From NCBI RefSeq assembly GCF_055900595.2, contig NZ_CM148325.1: a DNA stretch of 64,000 bases. One strand, 5' to 3'. Below the pieces are notes generated by a model, which was not told the DNA's origin, ran no database searches, and worked only from the letters and a program-made list of their open reading frames with translations. The position numbers and the translations under genes were made by a program. Below, one piece after another: positions 59,624 to 61,753 of this stretch (positions are counted from its first letter, which is position 1; each line of letters begins with the position of its first letter).

Positions 59624-59971
59624 ATGAAGACGTTTTTCAGAACAGTGTTATTCGGCAGCTTGATGGCCGTCTGCGCAAACAGTTACGCGCTCAGCGAGTC
59701 TGAAGCCGAAGATATGGCCGATTTAACGGCAGTTTTTGTCTTTCTGAAGAACGATTGTGGTTACCAGAACTTACCAAACGGGCAGATTCGTCGCGCACTG
59801 GTCTTTTTCGCCCAGCAAAACCAGTGGGATCTCAGCAACTACGATACCTTCGACATGAAAGCCCTCGGTGAAGACAGCTACCGCGATCTCAGCGGCATCG
59901 GCATTCCCGTCGCTAAAAAATGCAAAGCCCTGGCTCGCGATTCCTTAAGCCTGCTTGCCTACGTCAAATAA
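59624..59971 (+). CDS. yacC: PulS/OutS-like small secreted protein
   Basis: 115 aa from MKTFFRTVLFGSLMAVCANSYA (signal peptide); divergent from cueO. Confidence 0.8.
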   Translation: MKTFFRTVLFGSLMAVCANSYALSESEAEDMADLTAVFVFLKNDCGYQNLPNGQIRRALVFFAQQNQWDLSNYDTFDMKALGEDSYRDLSGIGIPVAKKCKALARDSLSLLAYVK

Positions 59972-60076
59972 TCCCTGATACCTTTTTGTAGAAATATTGA
60001 CCGTGCATCCGCGGTCAATGTTAGCTATTATGTTGCGCCCTTTTTTTACGGGTGTTAACAAAGGAGGTATCAACCC

Positions 60077-60943
60077 ATGGCCGAAAAAAAACAGTGGCAT
60101 GAAACGCTACACGACCAGTTTGGGCAGTACTTTGCTGTAGATAACGTTCTGTATCATGAAAAGACCGATCACCAGGATCTGATCATTTTTGAGAACACTG
60201 CATTTGGTCGCGTAATGGCGCTGGATGGCGTAGTACAAACCACCGAGCGCGACGAGTTTATCTATCATGAGATGATGACCCACGTTCCGCTATTAGCCCA
60301 CGGTCACGCGAAACATGTGCTGATTATCGGCGGCGGCGACGGTGCCATGCTGCGTGAAGTGACCCGACATAAAAACGTTGAGTCAATCACGATGGTGGAA
60401 ATCGATGCGGGTGTCGTGTCGTTCTGCCGTCAGTATCTGCCCAACCATAACGCAGGCAGCTACGACGATCCGCGCTTTAAACTGGTGATCGACGATGGCA
60501 TCAATTTCGTTAATCAAACCAGCCAGACCTTTGATGTCATTATCTCCGACTGCACCGATCCTATCGGTCCCGGCGAAAGTCTCTTCACATCAGCATTTTA
60601 CGCAGGTTGTAAACGCTGCCTGAATCCTGGCGGTGTCTTCGTCGCACAGAACGGCGTCTGCTTTTTACAGCAGGAAGAAGCCATCGACAGCCACCGCAAA
60701 CTCAGCAATTATTTTAGCGATGTCGGCTTTTATCAGGCGGCAATCCCGACCTATTACGGCGGCATCATGACCTTTGCATGGGCGACAGATAACGACGCCT
60801 TACGCCATCTCTCAAGCGAAATTATTCAGGCGCGTTTTCTCGCTTCTGGCCTGAAATGCCGTTATTACAATCCGGCAGTCCATACGGCAGCTTTTGCCTT
60901 ACCTCAGTATCTGCAAGACGCACTGGCCTCACAGCCGTCCTAA
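60077..60943 (+). CDS. speE: spermidine synthase
   Basis: 288-aa [29 protein letters not shown] motif. Confidence 0.92.
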
Positions 60944-60958
60944 GGAGAAGATAAGAAA

Positions 60959-61753
60959 TTGAAAAAACTGAAACTGCATGGCTTTAATAATCTGACCAAA
61001 AGTCTGAGTTTTTGTATTTACGATATCTGCTATGCCAAAACTGCCGAAGAGCGCGACGGTTATATCGCTTATATCGATGAACTCTATAATGCCAACCGCC
61101 TGACCGAAATTCTGTCAGAAACCTGTTCCATTATCGGAGCCAATATTCTTAACATCGCCCGCCAGGATTACGAACCACAGGGTGCCAGCGTCACTATTCT
61201 GGTGAGTGAAGAACCGGTCGACCCGAAACTTATCGACAAAACAGAACACCCCGGCCCATTGCCAGAAACGGTCGTTGCCCATCTCGATAAAAGTCATATT
61301 TGCGTACATACCTATCCGGAAAGCCATCCTGAAGGCGGTTTATGTACCTTCCGCGCTGATATTGAAGTCTCAACCTGCGGCGTGATTTCTCCGTTGAAGG
61401 CGCTGAATTACCTGATCCACCAGCTTGAATCCGATATCGTGACCATTGATTATCGCGTGCGCGGTTTTACCCGCGACATTAACGGTATGAAGCACTTTAT
61501 CGACCATGAGATTAATTCGATTCAGAACTTTATGTCCGAGGATATGAAGGCGCTGTATGACATGGTGGATGTGAACGTCTATCAGGAAAATATCTTCCAT
61601 ACAAAAATGTTGCTTAAAGAGTTCGACCTTAAGCACTACATGTTCCACACTAAACCGGAAGATTTAACCGACAGCGAGCGCCAGGAAATTACCGCTGCGC
61701 TGTGGAAAGAAATGCGCGAGATTTATTACGGGCGCAATATGCCAGCTGTTTAA
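60959..61753 (+). CDS. speD: S-adenosylmethionine decarboxylase proenzyme
   Basis: 264-aa ORF starting at TTG (59-61 of line: ttg aaa aaa ctg), [25 protein letters not shown]. Confidence 0.9.

Follow-up and report, generated by a model that had tools for sequence, protein, structure and literature searches.

The inverted repeat between yacC and speE in the E. coli window (the whole stretch of DNA that was analysed, 64,000 nucleotides) probably encodes an RNA helix on the sense strand. This hairpin is most likely an unannotated element of an ordinary structure class, a 5'-proximal leader stem-loop that overlaps promoter DNA. The more specific reading, that the repeat forms the first structure of the speED leader and would probably stabilise the mRNA, is held with roughly even confidence. 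Spermidine is made by the products of speED, and records on the control of this operon are very sparse. The natural first guesses for such a repeat, operator or terminator, are corrected here, and the presence of two condition-specific mapped starts together with a conserved hairpin provides a testable handle on the post-transcriptional control of polyamine synthesis.

The yacC-speE spacer and its transcription starts

In the window, cueO is located on the minus strand, whereas yacC (59624-59971, with the stop codon TAA at 59969-59971, according to the list of open reading frames and the RefSeq annotation), speE (60077-60943) and speD (60959-61753) are all located on the plus strand. The yacC-speE spacer comprises 105 bp and contains, by sequence and annotation, the speE Shine-Dalgarno AGGAGG (60062-60067) ahead of the ATG at 60077-60079; the RefSeq annotation of complete E. 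coli genomes places no feature under it. The divergent cueO-yacC region harbors a separate palindrome, CCTTCCCCTTACGGGAAGG (59512-59530), beside a TTGACC on the cueO strand, which we take to be the operator of CueR (MerR-type) in the cueO promoter. Starts of cueO have been mapped at K-12 positions 136957, 137002, and 137046 (Cho et al. 2014). K-12 MG1655 has the same yacC-speE spacer, letter for letter, so that a window position p converts to 196541 - p in NC_000913.3 (K-12 minus strand). The yacC start at 59601 (plus strand) is located 476 nt upstream of the speE ATG, in agreement with the main operon promoter that Xie, Tabor and Tabor reportedly placed, in 1989, ~475 bp upstream of speE. This yacC start, K-12 136940(-), is present in the datasets of Kim et al. 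2012 and Cho et al. 2014.

Two mapped speE starts, both on the plus strand, flank the repeat. The upstream and stronger one, at 59991 (K-12 136550(-); Cho et al. 2014, Tables S4 and S6), was detected with 158 reads under stationary-phase, glutamine, and heat-shock conditions, and the downstream one, at 60037 (K-12 136504(-)), with 18 reads in exponential phase and a 40-nt leader (Kim et al. 2012; also in Cho et al. 2014); both were assigned to the unit speE;speD and to sigma-70 (Cho et al. 2014). The latter study merged the exponential set of Kim et al. 2012 with stationary-phase, heat-shock, and glutamine sets, and its starts were obtained by RACE-seq after 5'-triphosphate enrichment with Terminator exonuclease; neither speE nor yacC is listed in the SMRT-Cappable-seq and Mendoza-Vargas tables. 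The repeat spans +7 to +28 relative to 59991 and -40 to -19 relative to 60037, so that the same letters encode the structure that heads one speED mRNA and, for the other, serve as -35/spacer DNA of its promoter.

The upstream promoter, named here P2 (59955-59984, plus strand), was read from the sequence and overlaps the end of yacC. It is composed of a -35 TTGCCT (59955-59960), an 18-bp spacer, a TG at 59976-59977, and a -10 TACCTT (59979-59984), a geometry that is canonical for a start at the G at 59991, 6 nt after the extended -10, with the hexamer at -12 to -7. The motif TGnTACCTT is retained in three of the four Escherichia lineages and is rare in the other Enterobacterales spacers. The 59991 start thus combines exonuclease-enriched reads with a canonical promoter; however, a structured monophosphate end could also survive Terminator exonuclease, and what maps to 59991 could be a processing product that the hairpin shielded from the enzyme. 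For the downstream promoter, named P1, alignment places a -10 TATTAT at 60026-60031 (plus strand), with the start at 60037 located 5 nt downstream. Across 72 aligned spacers this box reads TAT-N-AT, with A49, A52, and T53 invariant, T48 and T50 conserved in at least 90%, and the fourth position variable, which is, as far as the alignment speaks, the usual -10 signature. At the place expected for the -35 of P1, GTGCAT (60003-60008) matches TTGACA in only two of six positions, so that the -10 element of a sigma-70 promoter is present at the 60037 start and a recognisable -35 is absent.

Several other promoter assignments were considered and discarded. TTGACC as a -35 lies 23 bp before TATTAT, which is too far, and 19 bp before TAGCTA, whose A2 is G in many species; these spacings rule out both an ordinary and a MerR-type long-spacer promoter using TTGACC. 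An antisense promoter from the mirror TTGACC has no -10, and no K-12 plus-strand start is mapped near 136520. Sigma-54 was rejected because the GG at -24 is AG in E. coli and most others and the 60037 start lies 1 nt past the GC expected at -12, and the sigma-E and sigma-H consensus sequences fail on spacing, on unconserved key bases, or on the position of the start. A TGGC-N7-TTGC arrangement with sigma-54-type spacing, TTGGCTATGATGTTGC, is present in Klebsiella, Yersinia, and some Enterobacter (window 60043-60057; columns 44-59 of the alignment) and is regarded as a coincidence; at this position, E. coli and most others read TTAGC, and the mapped starts do not fit. A leader peptide starting at the conserved ATG at 60029-60031 was also discarded, as it has no Shine-Dalgarno and indels in the U-rich loop break the frame between species. 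A consensus scan for promoters and terminators made no calls at the repeat, and the promoters described above were recognised through the published tables of transcription starts. In a separate observation, b0120, b0121, and b0122 were ~1.7-2.8 log2 higher in delta-rpoS than in the wild type (Cho et al. 2014, Table S7), which suggests that sigma-S, directly or via competition, keeps yacC-speE-speD down in stationary phase.

Covariation and conservation of the stem-loop

The sequence TTGACCG-TGCATCCG-CGGTCAA is located at 59997-60018 of the yacC-speE spacer, as reported in the initial annotation, with perfect 7-bp arms at 59997-60003 and 60012-60018 (plus strand) that a repeat search lengthens to 11 nt with 91% of positions complementary. 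By itself, a perfect 7-bp repeat is unremarkable in this window, where 110 such inverted repeats with a 3-12 nt spacer were counted against 38 +/- 7 in shuffles; the chance expectation for the exact repeat pattern at two mismatches or fewer is 0.31, and a second copy of the palindrome was absent from the 64-kb window. The RNA stem-loop, delimited by folds and compensatory change, extends over 59993-60022 (plus strand), with the stem at 59993-60005/60010-60022 and the loop CAUC at 60006-60009. This stem comprises 13 bp, two of them G.U, with a folding energy of -17.2 kcal/mol (z -6.4) that none of 200 dinucleotide shuffles reached. The extended hairpin is among the most stable 0.4% of same-strand 36-nt windows and is one of 30 such loci in the 64 kb, the others being mostly terminator- or REP-like. 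A search of Rfam with 59300-60400, at E up to 10, gave nothing beyond three chance matches below threshold, to eukaryotic snoRNA models and to a Yersinia sRNA model.

Conservation in close relatives was the check that the initial annotation had proposed as able to refute the repeat, and the repeat is kept both among Escherichia and across most Enterobacterales. Of 5,424 complete E. coli genomes, 5,397 carry the spacer at an identity of 99% or higher, and the surrounding kilobase of this strain differs by ~2.4% from most genomes. With one genome per species scanned, 80 speE loci were collected across Enterobacterales, and their 72 distinct spacers were aligned (alignment A2); the hairpin, defined by at least seven of nine inner Watson-Crick pairs, is kept in 44 of these 72, with at least four different arm sequences. 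The repeat is judged to be real on the basis of its stability, its near-invariance in E. coli, and its retention across Enterobacterales, and the suggestion that the spacer holds a functional-looking non-coding element is upheld, in the form of a conserved RNA hairpin. The arms read TTGACCG/CGGTCAA in Escherichia and Superficieibacter, ATGACCG/CGGTCAT in Salmonella and Citrobacter, TATAGCCG/CGGTTATA in Enterobacter and Lelliottia, CTCTGGCCG/CGGCCAGAG in Kosakonia-like genomes, and ATAGCCG/CGGCTGT in Cedecea, such that positions 1, 3, and 4 of the 7-bp arm differ between genera while complementarity is maintained.

The departures from Watson-Crick pairing indicate which strand is read. In the 44 sequences, a set chosen on Watson-Crick pairs alone and thus treating G.U and A.C equally, the non-Watson-Crick cells were 32 G.U, 2 A.C, and 15 others, with the G.U cells distributed over seven pair positions. 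Such an excess of G.U over A.C on the sense strand points to a sense-strand RNA helix, unlike a DNA palindrome read by a protein or an antisense RNA. For the 13-pair structure, 76.9% of cells were paired, compared with 27-45% when the partner columns were slid, and double-change cells numbered 67 against 36.7 +/- 3.9 in column shuffles, with none of 500 shuffles reaching the observed value. The measures that are robust to phylogeny (pairs with a double change, and further pair types) were not above shuffles. Parsimony on a neighbour-joining tree of speE gave 15 instances in which both partners of a pair change along one branch with pairing preserved, compared with 0-8 in slid controls, and within Escherichia all hairpin substitutions fall in the loop or are switches between Watson-Crick and G.U pairs. 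RNAalifold over all 72 sequences returned no consensus structure, which is attributed to the approximately one third of lineages without the hairpin and to the misalignment of the second hairpin at a 9-nt insertion.

It could still be argued that the palindrome arose by chance and is merely carried inside a conserved promoter region with no function of its own, given how common 7-bp inverted repeats are in the window, the invariant promoter-region motif overlapped by the left arm, the several independent losses of the hairpin, and the lack of a family-wide RNAalifold consensus. The stability of the stem, the recurrent compensatory changes with their strong G.U bias, and the preservation of the structure by every substitution within Escherichia make this view highly improbable.

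The spacers share a common order of blocks: a pyrimidine-rich start, (C)TGAAAT, the left arm running into CCGTGCA, a short loop, the right arm, GTT(A/G)GCTAT-N-ATGTTGCGCC, a second hairpin with a U-rich loop, GTTAAC, and the Shine-Dalgarno. CCGTGCA (60001-60007, plus strand; invariant columns 23-28 of the alignment) is invariant in 72 of 72 spacers, and GTT(A/G)GCTAT-N-ATGTTGCGCC (60020-60039) is nearly so, at a fixed gap of 18 nt. Both persist in lineages without the inverted repeat, a degree of constraint beyond what an ordinary sigma-70 promoter would require. Klebsiella/Raoultella, Atlantibacter, some Kosakonia, and Dickeya have lost the hairpin and kept the rest of the conserved block; this repeated loss with the block intact indicates that the hairpin is dispensable. 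In Yersinia pestis, Y. similis, and Y. nurmii the hairpin is shifted. In Klebsiella pneumoniae, yacC is not adjacent and the repeat is absent, yet the block is kept, with the speE start 8 aligned positions upstream of the E. coli one and a TATAGT box; the block with a start but without an adjacent yacC confirms a promoter region independent of yacC. The mapped K. pneumoniae speE start itself falls within a TATGAT box. At the loci of Klebsiella and relatives (L031, L043, L044, L046, L051, L061) and at L042, L045, L047, and L078, yacC is non-adjacent or 167-671 bp off, the terminator-like hairpin of another gene precedes the block, and the repeat is degenerate. Insertions of ~50-120 bp between the yacC stop and the block were observed in Salmonella enterica subsp. 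arizonae (L008, ~1775-1895), Enterobacter sp. kpr-6 (L035), and L052/L053, some of them with strong hairpins or REP-like repeats such as CCCTCTCCCTTTGGGAGAGGG; the repeat is kept in L008 and lost in L035, L052, and L053.

Leader, operator, and terminator readings

In the transcript starting at 59991, the fold leaves 5'-GA ahead of a hairpin that occupies nt +3 to +32, that is, two unpaired nucleotides before the stem, and a stable helix is therefore found within ~0-4 nt of the mRNA 5' end; the yacC read-through RNA likewise carries the hairpin. RppH and RNase E require at least two unpaired 5' nucleotides and prefer at least three, and a 5'-terminal stem-loop blocks RppH (PMC8833179). A 5'-proximal helix would make the terminus harder to reach for RppH and for the 5'-end sensor of RNase E, and with 5'-end-dependent decay slowed, the speED message made in stationary phase, under nitrogen limitation, and upon heat shock would persist longer. 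Against this role, the two unpaired nucleotides are at the stated minimum for these enzymes and not below it, and the outer four pairs of the stem (A-U, A-U, U.G, and A-U) are weak. In addition, P2 is essentially confined to Escherichia and cannot explain the conservation of the hairpin in Enterobacter, Pantoea, and Erwinia; outside Escherichia, the hairpin has to exert its effect in RNA that is processed or that reads through from yacC, and in species without P2 it would protect the downstream part of a processed yacC-speED RNA in a similar way.

Hairpin 1 of the ompA 5' UTR and the papA 5' stem-loop stabilise their mRNAs (Emory, Bouvet & Belasco 1992; Bricker & Belasco 1999), according to the account of these works given in PMC3997798. 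The speED hairpin resembles them in having a stable helix that starts no more than 2 nt from a mapped 5' end, and the maintenance of the helix by compensatory change is counted as a further likeness; on established knowledge, the mechanism would be a hindrance of RppH and of 5'-end-dependent RNase E attack. Unlike these examples, the DNA of the speED hairpin doubles as the -35/spacer region of a second promoter, and its 5'-terminal start seems to be peculiar to Escherichia, the hairpin itself being far older. Intercistronic stem-loops also set differential stability and expression within operons, as in the malE-malF REP hairpins or papB-papA processing. With this type the speED hairpin shares its location between co-oriented genes of an operon, a few tens of nt past a stop codon and within read-through RNA; it differs in that no processed 3' end was detected and in being a single-copy, locus-specific element rather than a REP.

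The initial annotation had suggested a regulator binding site or a weak terminator for yacC, and neither fits the data well. An operator for a dimeric transcription factor would find a perfect 7-bp palindrome placed like usual repressor sites, at +7 to +28 and -40 to -19, where a bound repressor would shut both speE promoters; the half-sites resemble the TTGACC of RutR and the TetR type, and the invariance of CCGTGCA within the repeat is unexplained by a weak -35. A palindrome read by a protein should, however, show conserved bases and no strand asymmetry, and the arms change between genera with complementarity kept and with G.U far exceeding A.C. The earlier remark that no matching factor was evident stands, as RutR, the only E. 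coli factor known to have a comparable half-site, does not fit: its operator TTGACCAnnTGGTCAA (TetR family, PMC2475637) has the same inverted TTGACC half-site with a spacing of 2 instead of the 8 found here, none of its 20 ChIP-chip targets lies at this site (PMC2475637), and the arms of the repeat are unconserved across species that all have RutR. The conserved half-site identity expected of a palindromic operator, and the consensus spacing and occupancy expected of RutR, are thus absent, the 64-kb window holds no second copy of the palindrome, and the literature searched yielded no regulator of speE. The drifting arms and the lack of a fitting factor make an operator very unlikely; CCGTGCA and GUUAGCUAUNAUG are retained as candidate factor-binding motifs.

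The terminator proposal, broadened to a hairpin that halts some yacC transcripts or marks their ends shortly ahead of the speE promoter, be it as a weak or partial intrinsic terminator, as a 3'-end stabiliser, or as an insulator, can draw on a hairpin selected on the sense strand 22-50 nt past the yacC stop and on its distribution, since it is intact in 41 of 63 loci where yacC adjoins and in 2 of 17 where yacC is separated or a new upstream hairpin is present (Fisher p ~1e-4, without phylogeny correction and with a few clades dominating). It is also in line with the separate yacC transcription unit in Cho et al. 2014 and with the E. cloacae complex, in which a different hairpin followed by UUUUGUGUUG occupies the site and the -10 is gone. 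Rho-independent terminators likewise consist of a G+C-containing hairpin after a stop codon, but the stem here is followed by UGUUAGCU, with 4 U in 8 and no U-tract, and was not called by the terminator scan. No RNA 3' end was found at 136490-136549 in the Term-seq tables of Adams et al. 2021, in which the nearest operon 3' ends are at 134752, past speD, and at 136766, the sole yacC-associated end, which is intragenic. Moreover, the operon list used in PMC4448311 gives yacC-speE-speD as a single unit, and insertions after yacC in Salmonella arizonae and Kosakonia oryzendophytica have left the hairpin in place. With neither a 3' end nor a U-tract at the repeat, a terminator role is unlikely. 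The four loci of the E. cloacae complex (L015, L020, L024, and L074, ~1925-1965), where AACCGC-loop-GCGGUU and UUUUGUGUUG replace the repeat and TAT-N-AT, are a separate case, and the replacement looks like a terminator or attenuator directly before speE, with no obvious proximal promoter.

Second hairpin and the whole spacer RNA

A second hairpin is predicted by folding at 60031-60060 (plus strand), with the core CGCCC/GGGUG at 60036-60040/60050-60054 and a U-rich loop. It begins at the 5' end of the RNA from 60037, extends via UGUUG/UAACA in longer transcripts, is changed in a compensatory manner to CGCUC/GAGUG in Escherichia sp. E1V33, and is part of the predicted fold in most species. The whole spacer folds into a three-way junction at -41.5 kcal/mol (z -6.4), in which the pyrimidine tract UGAUACCUUUUU (59976-59987, plus strand) closes the junction, in the prediction, by pairing with the Shine-Dalgarno region of speE at 60061-60072; this helix can form only in yacC read-through RNA. 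The stem-loop at the repeat could accordingly be viewed as one arm of an intercistronic junction in which UGAUACCUUUUU occludes the speE ribosome-binding region and the closing helix is held together by the two hairpins, such that the long RNA would yield little speE translation, or yield it only in coupling to translation of yacC, whereas the two short RNAs would be translated freely. The 12-bp helix 59976-59987/60061-60072 over AGGAGG has a predicted probability of 0.96, and 47 of 63 species show a probability above 0.5 that the 5' segment, on average 70% pyrimidine, pairs with the Shine-Dalgarno or the AUG, some lineages pairing the start codon instead (GCCAUUGG/CCAAUGGC); a bicyclomycin-sensitive (Rho) site early in speE, at 136337, is also compatible with this proposal. 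However, shuffles of the 5' segment matched in composition gave 0.535 against 0.64 (Wilcoxon p 0.006, with species non-independent), so that the anti-Shine-Dalgarno pairing was set aside as evidence, being largely accounted for by the pyrimidine-rich composition, and the helix is no longer predicted for Escherichia sp. E1V33 (0.06) and several others. We regard the junction as an unlikely explanation of the repeat, although it is compatible with the leader stem-loop, the two not being mutually exclusive.

Beyond these readings, the entire ~100-nt spacer may be a conserved structured regulatory leader that makes speE translation depend on the promoter or binds a protein or a polyamine-type ligand, a proposal that we consider quite unlikely. 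CCGUGCA and GUUAGCUAUNAUGUUGCGCC are invariant from Escherichia to Yersinia, Dickeya, and Erwinia and are located beside two covarying hairpins. If this proposal were true, speE translation would be set by which of three promoters made the RNA, with the ribosome site occluded only in read-through; alternatively, the invariant single-stranded motifs would bind a protein or polyamine and provide feedback on spermidine synthesis.

Finally, several observations concern the passage of transcription from yacC to speE. The 20-30 nt after the yacC stop (window 59972-59992; L003-L082) are ~70% pyrimidine in nearly all species, with CCUUCCCGACGCCCC, CCUCCC, and similar sequences, and this tract, which complements the speE Shine-Dalgarno, might just as well load Rho as a rut-like element. 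The intragenic yacC 3' end, at window position 59775 (K-12 136766), is strong and lies 151 nt into yacC, and the bicyclomycin-sensitive, Rho-dependent site, at window position 60204 (K-12 136337), lies ~127 nt into speE (Adams et al. 2021); either of them could influence what share of yacC transcription reaches speE.
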